A stretch of 64,000 bases of DNA, from NCBI GenBank assembly GCA_000004695.1, contig CM000151.3, positions 3,712,001-3,776,000 on the forward strand. The letters run 5' to 3'. Within the stretch, counting starts at the first letter, position 1; every line of letters starts with the position of its first letter. A program made the translations under genes and the position numbers. The notes beneath the pieces are model-generated. The model had not been told where the DNA came from and made no database searches. It saw only the letters and a list, made by a program, of their open reading frames with translations. This DNA comes from Dictyostelium discoideum (lineage: Eukaryota). Below, in pieces: positions 17,139-63,990 of the stretch.

Positions 17139-18140
17139 TTTAAAAAATTAAAAAAAATAGGTAAAAGTTAAATAAAAAAAAAAAATAAAAAAAAAAAATA
17201 AAAATTAAACTCCTTTTAACATTTTTTAAATTATATTATATTAACTGGTAATAAATTTATATTCTTTTTTTATATAATTATTTTTTTTAAACGTTTTGAT
17301 TGCCCACCAAAAAATTAAAAATTAAAAATTAAATATTTATAAATTATTAGTTTGACAACCGGTTGACCTATTTTTTTATTTTTTTAATAGAATTTCAGAA
17401 AAAATCATTATCTATTTTTTCTTTTTTCTTTTTTCTTTTTTCTCTTTTTTCAATCGGTTATTTACCATTTATATATTTATATATAATTATTATTATTATT
17501 TTTTTTTTTTTTTTTTGAATTTATTTTTTTAAATTATTTTAATTTTTTTTTTTTATTTTTATTTTTAATTTTTATTTTAATTTTAATTTTAATTTTAATT
17601 TTAATTTTAATTTAAAATAATCATTAAAAAATATTATTCGGCAAAATAAAAAATAAATTATTAAACAATCATAAGAAATATAATTCTCGTCCACTTCAAA
17701 ACATTGGTTTAATAATCACCCTTTCTCTTAGTGATCAATGTTGTAAATTGTAAAAAATAAAATAAAAAATAAAAAAAGAAACAAAGAAAAATCATAAAAT
17801 TATGGAGGGATATCTACAAATCATTATATTTGATACTTAAAAAATTTTGTATTTTAAAATAATGCCAAAGTCACTTCCGAATAAGCCTTTTTTTCAAATT
17901 TTTTTTAAAAAAAATAAAAAAAAAAAAACTAAAAAAAAAAAAGTAAAATAAAAACCACAATTAATCTGAAAAAATTATTTTTAATTTGTAAATCCCATAT
18001 CAATTTCAAAAAATGTGTCAATTTGGACCATTAATAATACCAAGAAATTATTGTTATTATTATAAAAAATTTAAATAATAAATAAATAAATTAAATAAAT
18101 AAATAAAAATAATCAAATATATTTTTTTTTTTTTTATTAT

Positions 18141-18174
<34 letters not shown>

Positions 18175-18637
18175 GGCCGGTTCACAGAAAAAAAAAAAAA
18201 AAAAAAAAATAAAAATAAAAAAAAAAAAAATAAAAATAAAAAAAAAAATAAATAAAATTTAAACTAATTATTGCTTCTAAAATTAAAAATAAAAATATAG
18301 ACTTTAAAATAGCCATTTTAAATACGTTTTTAAAATCTCTCGATAATCACATTAATTTTTTTTTTTTTTTTTTTTTTCAAATTTTTTTTTTTTTTTTATT
18401 TTTTTATTTTTTTTTTTTTTAAAGCATTATCAGACATTCACAAATACACACACAAACACACATTTTTCACTAATTCACATACAATTTAGAGATAAACATA
18501 AAAAAAATCTTTAAAATAATAATAAAAAAATTAATAAATAAAAATAAAAATAAAAATAAAAATAAAAATAAAAATAAAAACAAACAAATAAATAAAAAAC
18601 TTTGTTATTGTGTGAATTACCATAGTTATAGTTTGTC

Positions 18638-56654: not shown

Positions 56655-56754
56655 NNNNNNNNNNNNNNNNNNNNNNNNNNNNNNNNNNNNNNNNNNNNNN
56701 NNNNNNNNNNNNNNNNNNNNNNNNNNNNNNNNNNNNNNNNNNNNNNNNNNNNNN
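56655..56754. other. Assembly gap (100 N)
   Basis: Run of n characters in the sequence. Confidence 0.99.
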
Positions 56755-56885
56755 AAAATTGGGGTGCACCAAAATTTACATCAGCAGAGAGATTTGAAGC
56801 ACAATTTAGTAAAATTAAAGACCTTTTGACAAACAATACAAACAACCAAGATCAACATAAATTTGAAAGAGTAAAAAAAATATTA

Positions 56886-57287
56886 ATGGCAACATTTTTA
56901 GATAATTTTAACAATCTAAAAGAAAAAGATGATGACAATAATGATTTAATTTTAGGGCAAATAATTAAAAAAAATGAAAATATTTATTTAAAAAATAATA
57001 TTTTATCAGACATTAACTTGCATTACAAAAACATTGAAAATATTCAATTTCATAAATCAATTAAAAATTTAAAAGAAATATATAATGTTGGTGATGGAAT
57101 TGAAGTTGCCTCAGAAAATTCATTAACTGGACGATGGAGTGCAATAATTATTGCTATTTGTTTAATAGAATTAAAAAATAAAAAAAGTGCACATTCTATT
57201 TATATACAATACTTTGATAAAGATACAGGTGATCAAAATAATAAGTACCACTTTTTAAGAAAAAGCTTTTCAAGTATAACATATTAA
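56886..57287 (+). CDS. Orphan ORF (133 aa from the first ATG) immediately downstream of the assembly gap
   Basis: Open frame bounded upstream by tga at 56823; coding status and completeness unknown; may be an exon of a gene interrupted by the gap. Confidence 0.3.
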   Translation: MATFLDNFNNLKEKDDDNNDLILGQIIKKNENIYLKNNILSDINLHYKNIENIQFHKSIKNLKEIYNVGDGIEVASENSLTGRWSAIIIAICLIELKNKKSAHSIYIQYFDKDTGDQNNKYHFLRKSFSSITY

Positions 57288-57396
57288 ACACATTAATACC
57301 AATACAAATCGATTCGTCTAACTATCTTATAATTTATAAGTGCCATGACCAATTTTCAATAAGTAAAAAAAAAAAATGAAAAAAATTCGTTGAACT

Positions 57397-57598
57397 CACA
57401 GCGAAGAAAAAACCACCTTTAAATTCGCTTTAAATTAAATTTAAATTTGCTTTAAAGTCCTGAATTAAAGCAATTTTAAAGGTAATTTTAAAGGTAATTT
57501 TTAAGGTTACTTTAAAATTACCTTTAAAATTACCTTTAAAATTACCTTTTTAATCGCTTTAAAAGCGAGGTCCTGAGTTCGAAGCCGTTATTTAACGG
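57397..57598. repeat. Outer terminal inverted repeat, left arm
   Basis: Reverse-complement match to 62690-62902. Rich in the motif aaaggtaatttt. Contains the B-box-like gagttcgaagcc. Confidence 0.7.
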
Positions 57599-57796
57599 AT
57601 AAATTTTTTAAATTTTTTTTTTTAATTTTTCAAAAATTACCAAAAGGGATTCGATCCCCCGACCCTCTATTAAAGGGTAGTCTCATCAACCATTACACCA
57701 TTTGATTGCTTTGATGAAAAATTTAAAAATGATAGAATATTTTATCCCCATTTTTTTGTTCTAAAATTAGATCTTTTTTATTAAAAACCTTTAATT

Positions 57797-58010
57797 TATG
57801 TTTAAAGGAAATTTAAATTCACTTTAAATCTACTTTAAATCCTATTTAAAATTAATTTAAAATAAATTTTAAAGGTATTTTTAAATGTCTTAAAAATTAT
57901 CTTAAATTTACCTTAAAAATCACCTTTAAAATCACCTTTAAAATCACCTTTAAAATTGCTTAAAAATTTATTTTAAAGCAAATTTTAAAGGCATTTTTAA
58001 ATATCTTAAA
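57797..58010. repeat. Inner inverted repeat, left arm ((tttaaaggt/aatttta) periodic motif)
   Basis: Reverse-complement match to 59701-59930 over more than 200 nt with few mismatches. Confidence 0.7.
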
Positions 58011-58259
58011 AATTACCTTAAAAATTACCTTAAAAATGAATTTTTTAAACGCGGCTTTAAATTCAATTTAAATCCAATTTAAATCAACTTTTCTTTAAAT
58101 TTGCTTTAAAGGTGCATTTTTCTTTGCTGTGCTTATTTACATAACTTTTACATTTTTACGTAACTTTTTCTTTTTTTTTTTTCTTTTTTCCAATTTTCTT
58201 TTTTTTCGGTTGGAAATTATAGGATTTTAAAAAAAAATTAAAAAAATATTATAAAAAAA

Positions 58260-58541
58260 ATGACTCACAATAATTCTGCATCATTTGAAACACCAAATAG
58301 AAGTGGTAATTATGTAAATAGATCATCTTTAACTTCACCAACATCACCAATAACACCAATCACATCTCTTATTTTAAATCAAACTGATACCTCCATAGGT
58401 CCACAACGTACTGTTAGAAGACAACAAAGACCTCAAAGACCAAATGCAAGTCATCCACCAACAACAAATATTGTAGAAAAAATATTGGTGTATGAAACAT
58501 TGCACAGAAATTGTGTTTCTCAATACTATGCAACTGGTAAG
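58260..58541 (+). CDS. Gene inside the IR-bounded element, exon 1 (S/T/P-rich N-terminus ...CVSQYYATGK)
   Basis: ATG at 58260; donor aag|gtaaga at 58542. Confidence 0.5.
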
Positions 58542-58549
58542 GTAAGATA

Positions 58550-58594
<45 letters not shown>

Positions 58595-58635
58595 AAGAGA
58601 CTAATTAAATTAAATAAACAAAAATAATACATAAG

Positions 58636-58854
58636 ATTTCCTCTCGTTTTATTAGGACCTGTATATTAAATGCTGGCGGTACAAATTCAAATGAAAATAA
58701 AGTTGTTCTATCCAAATTGGTTAAATGGGTCAACAATAAACGTGGTAACACACGTATTAAAGCCCTAAATACCCTTAGACTTTTAGTTAGAAATAAAGTA
58801 GAACAGTTCAGCGAGTTGCTCTCTCAGGTTCCACCATTAATGGAGTATGAATCG
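58636..58854 (+). CDS. Gene inside the IR-bounded element, exon 2 (ISSRFIRTCILNAGG...KVVLSKLVKWVNNKRGNTRIKALNTLRLLVRNKVEQFSELLSQVPPLMEYES)
   Basis: A phase-0 acceptor cataag| at 58635 is needed for frame continuity; the nearer ttattag| at 58660 is out of phase. Donor tcg|gtatgt at 58855. Codons are GC-richer than the genome norm. Confidence 0.4.
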
Positions 58855-58963
58855 GTATGTAAAAAAAAAAAAAAAATAAAAAATAAAAAAAAAATAAAAA
58901 AAAAAAAAAAAAAAAAATAAATTATTAATAATTTGTTTTTTTAATTTTTTAATTATTATTTAG

Positions 58964-59233
58964 ATAACTCCTTTTGATTTGGCCACTCTTATTATCGATA
59001 CAGTTACCTTAGAAGCTTTTGACTCCGATCCTTTTGTAAAGTTCTTAGTGTCTCAATGCTTTACAATTGAAGAAAAAGAATGGTACAGCGGTTCCAAACC
59101 TCTTATTTCTTTAATAGTTAAAGCATTGCGTGGTGTTTCTCAAAAGTTCATTGACTCTCCTGATGAACTTACTTACACTGAAAAGGTTGCTTTTGAATTC
59201 ACTTCAATACCTCTTTATGCTCCACTAAATTAA
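58964..59233 (+). CDS. Gene inside the IR-bounded element, exon 3 (ITPFDLATLIIDTVTLEAFDSDPFVKFLVSQCF...LYAPLN*); ARM/HEAT-like helical repeats
   Basis: Acceptor tatttag| at 58963, in frame with ORF 58979..59233. Confidence 0.5.
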   Translation: MTPFDLATLIIDTVTLEAFDSDPFVKFLVSQCFTIEEKEWYSGSKPLISLIVKALRGVSQKFIDSPDELTYTEKVAFEFTSIPLYAPLN

Positions 59234-59499
59234 ATCGTTTAAATAAAAAAAATTAATATGATTTCACATACTCAACTTTAATTTTTTCTTTTTTTTTTAA
59301 ATCTTTTTTTAATTTTTATTTTAAATTATTTTTTTTAATTTTTATTTTTAAAGTGATATTATTAATATATCTTATCAAGTTAACTTTATAATATAAATTT
59401 ATAAATGCACTTTTAAATTGAATTTTATAAATATAATTAATAAGAATACTTAATAAGTGTACTTACAAAGAGTACATTATAATTATAATTAGTAATTAC

Positions 59500-59702
59500 G
59501 CTTAATAATTATACTTAATAAGTATATTTAATAAGTATACTTAATAAGTATACTTAATAAGTATATTTAATAAGTATACTTAATAAGTATACTTAATAAG
59601 TATATTTAATAAGTATACTTAATAAGTATACTTAATAAGTATATTTAATAAGTATACTTAATAAGTATACTTAATAAGTATATTTAATAAGTATACTTAA
59701 TA
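59500..59702. repeat. Tandem array of about 16 copies of a 13-nt palindromic unit (TAATAAGTATACT/TAATAAGTATATT) with a 39-nt super-period
   Basis: Directly visible. The unit contains the palindrome AGTATACT. A related palindromic copy lies at 60040-60095. Confidence 0.85.
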
Positions 59703-59930
59703 ATATTTAAAAATGCCTTTAAAATTTGCTTTAAAATAAATTTTTAAGCAATTTTAAAGGTGATTTTAAAGGTGATTTTAAAGGTAATTTTTAAGGTAAT
59801 TTTTAAGATAATTTTTAAGATATTTAAAAATACCTTTAAAATTTATTTTAAATTAATTTTAAATAGGATTTAAAGTAGAATTAAAGTGAATTTAAAGTGA
59901 ATTTAAATTTCCTTTAAACATAAATATTAT
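59701..59930. repeat. Inner inverted repeat, right arm
   Basis: Reverse complement of 57797-58010. Confidence 0.7.
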
Positions 59931-60137
59931 TTTTTTCGTTAAAAAAAAAAAATTCCAAAATTTTTTATTTTTTTTTGTGTTAAAAAAAAATTCCTAAATT
60001 TTTTTTTTTATTGTATTTTTTTTCATCACACCATTATAAATTCTATGTACTTAATAAGTATTACTTATTAAGTATACTTATTAATATATATTAAAAAGAG
60101 TACTTGGATTTAAAGGTGCTTTAAAGTGTTGATTTTC

Positions 60138-62470
60138 GCCGCTGTGTGGATTGGTATCGACTCTACTGATTGTTTGGTCAATACTTCTTGGAATGTTCCC
60201 AGTACTTGAGGAAACATATGACGATGATGACGAGGAACTTGAGCTTGAATCATCGGATACCAAGTTGCTGATCTCCAGATTGGGAAGATCAGTATTATAG
60301 AAACCTTCTTCGAACTGGATGAGTTCATCTTCTCCAGTATAGAAGGCAAAAGAATGGGTGGTGGAAAGGCCAGACATTACTTATATTGACTCCAATCGAG
60401 GTGGAGTGCATTCATTCTGATTGTTGAGTAGTTGTTCGTTTGATGGTTGAGGTGAGATGCGAACAGATCCATCTGTATTTGACCGAATTGAAGTTGCCAG
60501 TTGTAACTCTTGATTACTCTGGTCGATGATATGTGATTCATCTCTGAAAGACGACTGAGGTGGTCGGCTTTTACATTATTCATAATATATATATATATGA
60601 TAATATAAATTAAATTTTTAAATCTTATTCATAATATATATATATATATATATGATAATATAAATTACCAGCCTTATTCTTAATCACAAGCTTGTGTTCG
60701 AGTTTACTTAAAAAATACTACAAATATGTATGTTGTAACTCTTCCACTAAAGAATCCAGCTCTCCACGGTATGCTTGCTGTAGTTCTGCCTCATGAGCCT
60801 GGAGACGTTCCTCAGGAGACAAGCTATGGCTGAACGAATTAGACAGAATAACACCACGAGGGATACCGTAGTGGGATAGGTTAGATGCCTTCATAACAAA
60901 CCAGAAGTTTAACAGCCAACTCACTACCATGTCATTGTTAGAGACTCAAAACTAAATTAATTTAAAGTTAGTTTGAGCTCAACAACATAACAAATTCGCG
61001 CATCTCCATGTAAAAATATTTCATTTAATTTTTGTTTTTTATTTTTTATTTTTTCAGTCAAAAAATAAAATTAAAAAAATTAAATAAAATTAAAATTTAA
61101 AAAAATAATAAAAATTCTGATTTTCGGTTTAGTTAGATAACGCCCTTACATTCAATTATCTGTTTTATGTATGTTTACTTTTATGATGTTAGTCTTTCAC
61201 TCTTTCTATCCTTCATATGGAATGACATTAGATTAAAGATTGGACTAGTTCGGTTAAAGATTGAACAAATGTGACAATGGATTGAAGATTAGTGTGAGAA
61301 ACTTTTACAGTCATCGTATCCAGACGCCTTGTGGTCAATACGACCATTCTTAACAACCAGACTGGTGATCTCATTAATCAGCGTTTTATCGTGAGTAACA
61401 CGACCAGCGCGTTTAGCCGCTTCAGGTAGGACTTCACCGTACAGTGTCAACGCGATTCGGCTGTAGTAACGAACCCAAACTTGTTACGCACGTCATCGTA
61501 GAAATAACTACCACGAGGACGCAGTGGATTGTTAACCATAGCAGCTGCATTTTTATCCACCTTCACCTCTTCAACAATCCAGTTAAAAATATGTTTGAAT
61601 GGATCAATACCTTGTAACGGCGAATTTAATCAGGTTAGTTTCATTACAACCCCCTGCATCTACTGTAACCATATCACGAATGTAAGTAAACACTAAACCA
61701 ATGGCATCTCTACCGATCGCTTCCGAGGGATCCATCCCTAGTAGAATGTGTGCCCCTTCGTTAATTTCTCATGTCGATCTTTTGGTATGTGTCAGCCGAT
61801 ACTGTAACCGTCTTTGGAACTCAGTCCACAGTGGGTCACGTTCATAGTCACGGATAATGTTGTTTAGCTCAGTTGACAGAGGTGAACGTAAAGAACCTGA
61901 TGTCCAGCGGTTAAAGAAGTCACGGTCTGCTTCTTTAATTTTAACACCGGAGTTCTGCAATGCGTCACGCAGCCATTCTTTATCCAAACCAAGCTGACGA
62001 TAACTCCACGTCCCGTTAATCATAATAAGCGCACCTTTCTTACCGATGAGTTTGATTAATACGGTACGTAGTTCTTCCTGGTTTCTCAGGTCTATGATGG
62101 TCTTTAACCCAAAGATAAGACGGCAGTAGATCGCGAATCTCTTTTAATCGGTCGAAGTTAGACCGTCAGTAGTGCGTCATCCTTCGTAATCAGGTTAATG
62201 CTGATGGTATCTGACGAACCAGACTTACCGGTCTGACGGGGATTAACATGTAGTCGATGTGGTTATAGAAGCTCCAGATCAAACTCAGGTTAGCACGGTT
62301 TGCTTTAAAAGGACGCGGCGTTGCACCCGCAGAGAATCTAACGACCTCACGATAGTAATACCATGGGTTGAATCGACATTCGATAGCGAATTAATTTCTT
62401 ATGACAGATCGGTGGCAAATGGATCCACTGACTTAATTCCTGTTGAAGGAGACTAAGCATGAATGTACAG
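60138..62470 (-). mobile_element. GC-richer (about 45-50% GC) exon-like blocks of a degenerate integrase/RNase-H-like gene, possibly a transposase, interrupted by AT-rich intron-like spacers
   Basis: Minus-strand open frames at 62023-61769, 61610-61300, 60930-60718, 60583-60377 and 60377-60081 sit in different phases. Motifs NNVKADHLSR (like N..ADALSR at the RNase H/integrase junction) and IDHKASGYDD (like RT/IN D.K.SGY). A GTAAAAG donor-like site falls exactly at the GC-to-AT transition at 61300. An AT-rich spacer spans 60940-61300. Confidence 0.4.
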
Positions 62471-62689
62471 TTCTCAACACCCATTTCTTTATAAAGATTT
62501 AGAAATTCAAGTTAATCAAATAATATTAATATTGTATTTGTATTCAAAGTGAAAAACTAAATTTTTCGAAAAACGAAAAACTTCGTAAAGTATCAAAATA
62601 CTTTACAAAAATTCAAAAAAAAATTCAAAAAAAAATTCAAAAAAAAATTCAAAAAAAAATTCAAAAAAAAAAAATTTAAAAAAATTTAT

Positions 62690-62902
62690 CCGTTAAATAA
62701 CGGCTTCGAACTCCGGACCTCGCTTTTAAAGGATTAAAAAGCTAATTTTTAAGGTAATTTTAAAGGTATTTTTTAAGGTGATTTTAAAGTAAACTTAAAA
62801 ATTACCTTTAAAATTACCTTAAAAATTGCTTTAATTCAGGACTTTAAATTCGCTTTAAATTAAATTTAAATTTGCTTTAAAGGAGGATTTTTCTTCGCTG
62901 TG
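62690..62902. repeat. Outer terminal inverted repeat, right arm
   Basis: Reverse complement of 57397-57598. Confidence 0.7.
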
Positions 62903-62939
62903 GAATAAGCTGAGTTATTTCGAAAAAAGTTTATTTTTT

Positions 62940-63990
62940 TTTGACAAATTTTGCATGTTTTTTTTTTTTTTTTTTAATAAAACACATTATTTAAAACAAA
63001 AATTTTAAATAATATAAAACAATATTTGTTAAGACCTATCGTAGAATTAAATTTGGTTGTATTTATGGAGAAATAAAGAAAATATAAAAAAAAATGAACT
63101 TCGAAAAAAAAAAAAGGAACTTCAAAAAAAAAAAACTACATAAAATTTTTGTTTTAAATAATGGGGGACCTATCAGTGAATAATTGAATTAATTTTGAAA
63201 AAAAAAAGTTATTTTGAAAAAGATCGAGTTATCCCGGAAAAGATCAATCTTTTCGCGAAAAATTTTTCATTGGCCATATTATTTTTTTTTTTTTTAATTT
63301 TTTTCATTTATTCACAATTAAAATAAAAAATATAATAAATAAATAAATAAATAAAATAAATAGTATGATTGACAAAAAAAAATCAAAAATACCAGGGCTC
63401 AAATAAAGGATTTATTTTTTATATGTAGTTTTTTTTTTTTAAGTTCCTTTTTTTTTTCGAAATTCATTTTTTTTTATATTTTTTTTATTTCTCTATAAAT
63501 ACAACCAAATTTAATTCTACGACAGTCTTTACAAATATTGTTTTATATTATTTAAAATTTTTGTTTTAAATAATGTGTTTTATTAAAAAAAAAAAAAAAA
63601 AAAACATATGAAAAGTGAAAAATTTTTCAAAAAAAAATAAACTTTTTTCGAAATAACTCAATTTATTCCGGGATAACTCGATCTTTTTCAAAATAACTTT
63701 ATTTATTCAGAATTAATTCAATTATCCACTGATAGGTCCATTATTTAAAATTTTTGTTTTAAATAATGTGTTTTATTAAAAAAAAAAAAAAAAAAACATA
63801 TAAAATTTGAAAAAATTTCGAAAAAAAAAACTTTTTTTGAAATAAATGAATTTATTCTGAGATAACTCGATCTTTTTTAAAATATGCTGAGTTAATTATA
63901 ACAGAAATTTTTACTTTATTTTTTATTTTTTATTTTTTATTTTATTGACTAAATTATTTTTAAAAAAACAATTACAGATAATATTGAAGC
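62940..63990. repeat. Cluster of inverted and direct repeats at the window end (unit ...ttaataaaacacattatttaaaacaaaaattttaaataatataaaacaatatttgt...)
   Basis: 62960-63130 is the reverse complement of 63455-63595. A further partial copy lies at 63720-63790. Interspersed motifs ataactcgatc and ttcgaaa. Confidence 0.6.

Follow-up and report, generated by a model that had tools for sequence, protein, structure and literature searches.

A degenerate tRNA-like cassette in the core of a small DNA transposon of Dictyostelium discoideum

We analysed a stretch of 64,000 nt of Dictyostelium discoideum DNA (GenBank assembly GCA_000004695.1, contig CM000151.3, positions 3,712,001 to 3,776,000, forward strand), hereafter called the window, and focused on a 735-bp transposon with terminal inverted repeats (TIRs), the core of which contains a tRNA-like sequence. 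The transposon is a discrete insertion, and its core holds a 71-nt degenerate tRNA-like cassette with matches to A- and B-box sequences, the internal promoter motifs of tRNA genes transcribed by RNA polymerase III (Pol III). A further, isolated B box, here called motif 1, lies on the opposite strand of the same element. The cassette is not a functional tRNA, and it is not a copy of tRNA-Ile(AAU). From the comparisons described below, we infer that a degenerate, probably tRNA-derived A/B-box cassette and the isolated B box were taken up at the origin of a deletion-derivative transposon and have been carried passively since; our confidence in this reading is evenly balanced.

The transposon and its tRNA-like core

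The element starts with CACAGCGAAGAAAAA at 57397 on the forward strand and with CACAGCAAAGAAAAA at 58131 on the reverse strand. Identical boundaries, with unrelated flanks, were found in three further copies at the equivalent locus of a second strain (L001) and in one copy at another locus (L005). Furthermore, four paralogous copies of the surrounding repeat (in L005, L003, L002, and L004) provided empty sites, in which the position equivalent to 57396 is joined to that equivalent to 58132 (...GTTGAACTTATTTAC...). Hence, 57397-58131 is an insertion with a 2-bp duplication. A previous sequence-only reading of this DNA had correctly placed the motifs inside a TIR transposon, but had assigned them to the left arm of a 5.5-kb element (57397-62902); the empty sites delimit a self-contained element of 735 bp instead. 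The terminus CACAGCRAAGAAAAA occurs three times in the window, at 57397 (+), 58131 (-), and 62902 (-). Since this discrete TIR element contains no open reading frame (ORF) of 60 aa or more, we regard it as a non-autonomous DNA transposon resembling the miniature inverted-repeat transposable elements (MITEs).

Eight full copies were compared, namely that of the window, three in L001, one in L005, two in L009, and one in L007. A matching 2-bp target duplication was observed in six of the eight (CT, AT, TT, AT, TA, and AA). The main subfamily comprises elements of 735-775 bp, and the L007 copy represents a second subfamily, 560 bp in size; the TIRs of the transposon begin CACAGC, and its target duplication is 2 bp. 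Copies are clustered in L001, where four lie within 4.5 kb. Among three loci of D. cf. discoideum, one contained a truncated copy (L006) and two contained no copy. The left arm aligns with an inverted partial copy at 62902-62665 and, more loosely, with the element's own right arm. The limits of the core were obtained by local alignment against a second arm pair, which has the arms but not the core; the DNA enclosed by this pair is unrelated to the element. The 256 kb of D. discoideum DNA examined yielded no autonomous partner. The ORFs beside the second arm copy were considered for this role and rejected, as they correspond to a DIRS-like Dam-methyltransferase fragment and to a low-copy ORF with four homologues and no Pfam or PHROG family. 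One single-pattern scan of JGI metagenome contigs gave no match to distant relatives of the core.

In D. discoideum tRNA genes, the A box TRRYNNARYNG is located at +8 and the B-box core GTTCRANNC 30-60 bp away, and a G at +1, 7 bp upstream of the A box, is found in 83% of the genes (PMC5391098). Intragenic B boxes have the signature GTCnnnnGTTCRAnYC (PMC3159450). The cassette aligned with the Rfam tRNA model over its full length, and both Infernal and ARAGORN formed an acceptor stem of AAUCAAA and UUUGGUA with six of the seven pairs. The D stem, GUGU/AGAC, has three of four pairs and an 11-nt loop, with a 4-nt D-loop insertion in the model alignment, and the T stem consists of 3-4 bp with the loop AUCGAAU; the variable region is 2-3 nt. 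At 57646-57680, GGGATTCGATCCCCC and a perfect ACCCT/AGGGT hairpin with the loop TTAATAG were found, each with a single occurrence in the window. This hairpin had been pointed out in the sequence-only reading together with a TCAA/TTGA pairing and a GGGGG-ATCGAAT-CCCTT arm, and all of them are indeed present in the sequence. Its statement that no acceptor stem can be formed was not borne out, however, since the six pairs form when the D stem is GUGU/AGAC and the T stem is 3-4 bp. The spacing between the A box and the B box of the cassette is 33 nt, inside the range of tRNA genes. The GC content is 42% for the cassette, the acceptor being AT-rich, and ~20% for the window.

Between motif 1 and the cassette, which lie on opposite strands at a distance of ~65 bp, is an A/T tract in which both strands carry T runs. 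Motif 1 is contained in GGTCCTGAGTTCGAAGCCGTTATTTAACGG, which was found at 57569-57598 (+) and, inverted with one mismatch, at 62690-62719, in agreement with the earlier description of this string near 62700. Two strings had been proposed to resemble the B box, and by Dictyostelium criteria both do; the forward-strand string GGGATTCGATCC, however, is a poor B box as written, and the B-box reading is that of the minus strand, GGATCGAATCC. The core of motif 1, GTTCGAAGC, satisfies GTTCRANNC, and no A box lies upstream of it. The hairpin that follows has a 5-bp stem in the minimum free energy fold and was no better than those of shuffled sequences.

GTTCRANNC alone occurs once per ~7.5 kb in the D. 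discoideum genome (PMC5391098), and seven occurrences were found in the window. When the longer signature GTCnnnnGTTCRAnYC was searched with at most one mismatch, three matches were obtained in the window, all of which are motif 1 (in two arms) and the cassette B box; the expectation from shuffles is 0.71 per window. In 256 kb of natural D. discoideum DNA, 33 matches were observed, of which 20 are in copies of the element, 11 in a second repeat family, and 2 elsewhere. Based on this background of 2 per 256 kb, the probability of two independent matches in one 735-bp element was calculated to be ~1e-3 per window. A tRNA hidden Markov model (HMM) that uses primary sequence and was built from the comparison panel of tRNAs described below matched, within the window, only motif 1 (both arms) and the T arm of the cassette. 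Judged by D. discoideum criteria, the B-box resemblances thus appear to be largely real.

Table 1. Positions of the transposon, its motifs, and related repeats in the window
Feature	Position	Strand	Remarks
Complete 735-bp non-autonomous TIR DNA transposon (MITE-like)	57397-58131	+	termini CACAGCGAAGAAAAA/TTTTTCTTTGCTGTG; 2-bp duplication CT
Left terminal and subterminal arm	57397-57566	+	TTTAAAGGTAATTTT-type short repeats (tandem 12-mers); ends in palindrome CGCTTTAAAAGCG (57554-57566)
Motif 1, isolated intragenic-type B box GTCCTGAGTTCGAAGC	57570-57585	+	GTTCRANNC exact; GTCnnnnGTTCRAnYC with 1 mismatch
Hairpin CCGTTA-TT-TAACGG	57586-57599	+	immediately follows motif 1
T runs of 6, 11, and 5	57604-57628	+	after the hairpin
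Element-specific core, 165 bp	57631-57795		cassette and 88-nt mid segment
T5 run, potential Pol III terminator (predicted)	57632-57636	-	right after the 3' end of the cassette
Degenerate tRNA-like cassette, 71 nt	57637-57707	-	Rfam RF00005, 12.6 bits, model positions 1-71
Cassette B box GTCGGGGGATCGAATC	57648-57663	-	GTC signature correctly spaced; one mismatch of the core to GTTCRAnYC (T54 to A)
Anticodon-like hairpin ACCCT-TTAATAG-AGGGT	57662-57678	-	position 34 at + coordinate 57671; single occurrence in the window
A-box match TGGTGTAATGG	57690-57700	-	fits TRRYNNARYNG
Mid segment, 88 nt	57708-57795	-	5' flank of the cassette; part of the 165-bp core
Right arm, repeat-rich	57796-58131	+	neither motif present
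Larger multicopy repeat, host of the MITE insertion	56755-60146		carries DDB_G0267230
Right-arm fragment, inverted	59697-59945	-	inside terminal tandem repeats of a different, larger repeat
Separate partial left-arm copy, inverted	62655-62902	-	motif 1 (GTCCGGAGTTCGAAGC, 62703-62718) and hairpin; no tRNA-like cassette

Variation among copies and retrotransposon targeting

The cassette was compared among the copies. The anticodon is AAT in the window copy and GAT in all seven other full copies, and AAT is accordingly a private G-to-A change. Position 28 of the anticodon stem is occupied by C, T, or A in different copies. This variation in anticodon and stem indicates no selection for tRNA function and excludes ancestry from tRNA-Ile(AAU), to which the anticodon had been linked in the sequence-only reading. 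The cassette also departs from the canonical cloverleaf, in which the T stem has 5 bp, the variable region at least 4 nt, the D loop 7-11 nt, and the anticodon loop 7 nt with U33: its T stem and variable region are short, the D loop has an insertion in the model alignment, and U33 is not kept across copies.

The A box fits its consensus in all eight full copies (TAGTGTAATGG in L007 and TGGTGAAATGG in L001C), and the truncated L006 copy has TGGTGTAATGT. The T-arm/B-box block GAGGGTCGGGGGATCGAATCCCTTTTGG is unchanged in 8/8 full copies, including the diverged subfamily. Over nine arms, motif 1 changes only at the free n positions (CTGA, CGGA, CAGA, and CTGG) and at the mismatched Y position (G or T, the T restoring the consensus), and in L001A it matches the signature perfectly (GTCCTGAGTTCGAATC). 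The hairpin after motif 1 is kept in nearly all arm copies; one closing base is changed in L007, and one base just outside it in L009a. Between the subfamilies, the cassette and mid segment show 92-93% identity, whereas the arms show 78-81%, and the core is retained in the truncated D. cf. discoideum copy. These comparisons suggest some constraint on the core; the events behind them are few and were recognised only in hindsight.

TRE retrotransposons use tRNA genes and B boxes as landmarks, as had been stated in the earlier reading (PMC3159450, PMC5391098, PMC5006619), and among the tRNA genes of D. discoideum 61% have a TRE (PMC5006619). Had the cassette assembled TFIIIC/TFIIIB in the manner of a tRNA gene, TRE insertions would be expected at it. 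We considered insertion windows of 37-95 bp upstream for TRE5, with ~37-50 bp for TRE5-A, and 14-305 bp downstream for TRE3, which lie mostly inside the element. None of the eight full copies, a small sample, was interrupted by a tRNA-targeting retrotransposon at the expected distances; at equal rate and age, the probability of this result is 0.39^8, or ~5e-4. The copies of the element are unlike tRNA genes as retrotransposon targets, and the proposed role of the motifs as a retrotransposon landmark found no support. TRE5-A integrates at an isolated B box with <1% of the efficiency seen at a tRNA gene (PMC5391098). Because it is such a poor target, motif 1 could be a TFIIIC-only site that leaves no trace of this kind.

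Origin of the cassette

We propose that a decayed tRNA gene or pseudogene, or a tRNA-like A/B-box locus, was probably acquired as internal filler when the deletion-derivative element arose, and that the element would have carried it passively since. As the B-box positions seem to be kept, weak TFIIIC binding may be possible at them. In favour of this reading are the restriction of the core to this element, the full-length alignment with RF00005, the A- and B-box matches with their conservation among copies, and the HMM matches. For the consensus-type copy, extrapolation from the Infernal E-value gives ~0.1 chance matches per 64 kb and ~3e-4 for one given 165-bp segment. Within 194 kb, an A box followed after 20-60 nt by GTCNNNNGWTCRANYC was found only in copies of the element, the expectation being 0.003 per 64 kb.

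A number of results weigh against this reading. ARAGORN detected no tRNA in the whole window at the default, 95%, or 90% thresholds, and at 85% (-ps85) it gave eight matches, the cassette and seven others, so that the cassette is at chance level by this program. With RF00005, the score was 12.6 bits for the window copy and 14.8 bits for the consensus-type L005 copy, about half of the gathering score of 29; no Rfam family, tRNA included, reached its gathering threshold in the whole 64-kb window, and a tRNA gene was rejected by the Rfam E-value threshold as well. The tRNA-like stretch of the sequence-only reading was accordingly recovered as a full-length alignment, but below threshold. With 12.6-14.8 bits and ARAGORN negative at its three stricter settings, this is close to the absence of any tRNA-finder match even in pseudogene mode, the outcome which that reading had said would refute it. 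At 12.6 bits, the same extrapolation, scaled to one family, gives ~0.5 chance matches per 64 kb. The folding energy of the cassette equals that of shuffles (z = 0.04). Against a comparison panel of 24 tRNAs, none of them from Dictyostelium, the best identity was 44/71, whereas shuffles averaged 43.5; no isotype signal was obtained, and no donor tRNA was identified. The D arm appears Gln/Glu-like and the anticodon arm Ile(GAU)-like, which argues against a simple decayed copy of one isotype. The cassette core GATCGAATC fails the operational GTTCRANNC by a T-to-A change at the second position. The expectation of 0.003 per 64 kb for the combined A and B boxes is optimistic because T54 was relaxed after the sequence had been seen. 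In the L007 copy, U33 is lost (A33) and one anticodon-stem pair is broken; these changes fit a relic and equally a sequence that was never a tRNA. Furthermore, variable columns in the main subfamily amount to ~7% in the cassette and in the right arm alike.

Much of this would also be expected of a chance or convergent resemblance, in which a GC-richer transposon core is kept for the needs of the element itself (for example, protein binding or DNA structure) with no tRNA ancestry or Pol III connection, and TTCGAA-centred palindromes and short hairpins mimic T arms. That every tRNA detector stayed below threshold, with ARAGORN at chance level, and that neither a thermodynamic signal nor an isotype affinity was observed would follow directly. 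At 14.8 bits, some tens of equal chance matches are expected genome-wide by extrapolation from the Infernal E-value; GTTCRANNC is common, both in the genome and in the window; and the palindromes around motif 1 (CGCTTTAAAAGCG, TTCGAA, and CCGTTATTTAACGG) are those expected of a protein-binding region. We nevertheless consider this explanation, a serious rival, to be the less likely one, because two matches to a 12-position B-box signature fall within 735 bp against the low background described above, and because the A box, GTC signature, B box, anticodon-position hairpin, acceptor pairing, and T5 run all stand in tRNA order and spacing. In addition, the substitutions among copies respect the B-box consensus positions, and only one of the arms has motif 1, an unusual arrangement for the binding site of a transposase.

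An active mobile Pol III/TFIIIC module would be a further possibility; it would give rise to a short Pol III transcript, act as an ETC-like (extra TFIIIC) chromatin boundary, or offer TRE5, TRE3, DGLT-A, or Skipper-2 a portable landing site. A precedent is provided by A/B-box loci without other tRNA similarity: TRE5-A targets them, and their transcripts end at T5/T6 runs (PMC5391098). The cassette fits the A-box motif, has a box spacing within 30-60 nt, and is followed by a T5 run, the B-box blocks are unchanged in 8/8 copies, and between subfamilies conservation is higher in the core than in the arms. The change T54A, too, is natural in eukaryotic initiator tRNAs, which Pol III transcribes, and counts in favour of activity. 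We regard such a module as rather improbable, however, given that none of the eight copies was interrupted in the TRE5/TRE3 windows against 61% of tRNA genes, that the +1 base of the cassette (57707, reverse strand) is A against G in 83% of tRNA genes and in all six targeted rDNA (ribosomal DNA) loci, that the B-box core fails GTTCRANNC, that a T4 run lies within the 3' acceptor strand of the cassette, and that an isolated B box is so inefficient as a TRE5-A target. More improbable again is the specific case in which a cut-and-paste transposon spreads a working A/B-box cassette and a second TFIIIC site through the D. discoideum genome.

Finally, descent from tRNA-Ile, either as a pseudogene of nuclear tRNA-Ile(AAU) or as an organellar-type tRNA-Ile(GAU) from mitochondrial DNA, would account for the perfect 5-bp stem and the 7-nt loop with U33 and A37, with AAT here and GAT in seven other copies. 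GAU is the organellar and bacterial Ile anticodon, and the AT-rich acceptor and 42% GC would suit the mitochondrial variant. AAU ancestry is, however, excluded by the private nature of AAT. The D arms of the two Ile tRNAs in the comparison panel, E. coli Ile(GAU) and human Ile(AAU), read AGCTCAG...GGTTAGAGC and are unlike that of the cassette, TGGTGTAATGG, and the identity to these two tRNAs was not above that of shuffles; we therefore hold this origin to be very improbable.

Related systems, neighbouring DNA, and implications

B-box loci without tRNA context are already known to be in use on the rDNA palindrome (PMC5391098). The rDNA target AGGGTCGCGGGTTCGATTCCCC and the cassette AGGGTCGGGGGATCGAATCCCT agree at 18 of 22 positions, as counted. 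In the rDNA A/B-box loci, the GTTCRANNC core is perfect and the +1 base is G, and targeting by TRE5-A and transcription have been shown for them, whereas the cassette has T54A and a +1 A, lies within a DNA transposon, and showed no TRE association in eight copies. In D. discoideum, 66% of the tRNA genes have an external (ex-)B box ~41 bp downstream (PMC3159450). Motif 1 is similarly placed, ~51 nt past the 3' end of the cassette, but its B-box sequence is that of the opposite strand, its GTC signature is one of internal and not of external B boxes, and it occurs also without the cassette at 62703-62718. With tRNA pseudogenes and the tRNA-derived heads of short interspersed nuclear elements (SINEs), the cassette has in common the degenerate cloverleaf order, the retained internal promoter boxes, and the multicopy mobile sequence. 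SINEs, however, are retrotransposed from a Pol III transcript and have the tRNA-like head at their start, whereas the cassette has an internal position, oriented either way with respect to its flanks, in a cut-and-paste-type TIR element with a 2-bp duplication.

The element shares TIRs, a short target duplication, lack of coding capacity, copy clustering, and arms of short repeats with the MITEs of D. discoideum. The DDT and thug families reportedly are such MITEs or non-autonomous DNA transposons, as Glockner is said to have described in 2001. DDT-S would be a tentative candidate for the family of the element. The element differs from the repeat that carries the thug-S microRNA (miRNA); its identification as thug-S was rejected, since this miRNA (can_D3) maps elsewhere, at L005 18464-18613, adjoining a different tRNA-like repeat. 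The similarity between the repeat near can_D3 and the core of the element was not significant (z = 1.5-2.4), and the ATCAAAG common to both at an equal T-arm offset has an estimated p of ~0.09. In the window, 61232-61253 (-) shows 21/22 identity to the small RNA miRNA-like_D4 (UCGAACUAGUCCAAUCUUUAAU) of PMC4894637, of which a perfect copy was found at L009 9849-9870. This match was also rejected as a sign of thug-S, because D4 is a subtelomeric small RNA and not the thug-S miRNA; it has four genomic positions, two of them near telomeres (PMC4894637). As a candidate noncoding RNA promoter of the DUSE type (Dictyostelium upstream sequence element), the mid segment offered only CCCCATTT, which by eye is not the consensus, and the candidate was rejected. 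The arms at 57468-57547 and 62748-62835 form long AT-rich hairpins, which match miRNA precursor families of plants and animals below threshold (mir-3938, for instance, with 40.6 bits where the gathering score is 94). In this region, Rfam gave only such sub-threshold miRNA-hairpin matches to the repeat arms, and they are an effect of composition and palindromes, not homology. A literature search for a tRNA pseudogene in a DNA transposon, and for thug-T, found no report.

A second, unrelated tRNA-like repeat family was observed at L005 17660-18085, L002 2567-2634 (-), L003 ~4212, L009 5276-5363, and L010 15190-15325. In this family, a degenerate tRNA-like unit precedes one, two, or three B-box units in tandem (GGGAGGTCGCGGGTTCGATTCCCATATAAAAC), the latter nearly identical to the TRE5-A-targeted rDNA-palindrome site AGGGTCGCGGGTTCGATTCCCC (PMC3159450). 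With 18.9 bits (E = 1.4e-4), its units outscored all other examined DNA in the comparison with the tRNA HMM. In L005, two ends of this family face each other; one of them abuts the transposon terminus CACAGCGGCGAAAATC at 18009 and adjoins the repeat with the thug-S miRNA can_D3 (22/23 match, 18466-18488). No tRNA gene was found in the 256 kb of D. discoideum DNA.

On chromosome 1 of D. discoideum, the MITE copy of the window lies as an insertion in a subtelomeric repeat larger than itself, and the equivalent locus in the second strain is ~100 kb from a contig end. The host repeat, 56755-60146, is probably a larger DNA transposon related to the MITE. It carries a three-exon gene at 58260-59233 with 99% identity to DDB_G0267230 of D. 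discoideum AX4, which has at least 19 near-identical proteins across D. discoideum strains and no Pfam family. The repeat ends in a 13-bp tandem array (ATAAGTATACTTA x21, 59427-59703) and the terminus CACAGCGGCGAAAATCAACAC (60146-60126, -), which is similar to that of the MITE. An assembly gap of 100 N is located at 56655-56754. To the left of the point equivalent to this gap, the second strain has three additional MITE copies inside 3 kb, and this clustering may be the reason for the break in the reference assembly. At 60081-60583 (-), a DIRS-type retroelement fragment was found, encoding the peptide ...NVKADHLSRLSE... and then a Dam-like methyltransferase domain (Pfam PF05869, E = 7e-10), with 85-92% identity to portions of DIRS-like elements in L003. 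The frameshifted ORF at 61290-62470 (-) has 35-37% GC, unusually high for the D. discoideum genome. A set of 5.8 billion proteins contained only four homologues of it (two D. discoideum proteins and two metagenomic ones, the latter with 56% and 34% identity), and searches of Pfam and PHROG gave no family. Just outside the partial arm copy, 62902-63890 contains inverted and direct repeats of 150-255 bp, which belong to yet another repeat (62902-63145 paired with 63419-63669, 90%; 63547-63695 paired with 63740-63884).

The practical result of this study is a corrected anatomy of the locus, together with a modestly interesting and unproven tRNA-like core. If the boxes do not bind TFIIIC, they offer a caution that, in AT-rich genomes, B-box look-alikes and cloverleaves of sub-threshold score are concentrated in repeats, and that none should be called a tRNA relic without a donor. 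A tRNA-like module in a TIR element is unusual, and a DNA transposon core with A/B-box motifs would be a means of moving such sites; TFIIIC binding by the boxes would connect two transposon classes in a way open to direct testing. Should the element indeed spread a working cassette, mobile TFIIIC/TFIIIB sites could serve as chromatin boundaries or as "safe-haven" landing pads for tRNA-gene-targeting retrotransposons, and one transposon class would shape the target landscape of another in the D. discoideum genome.

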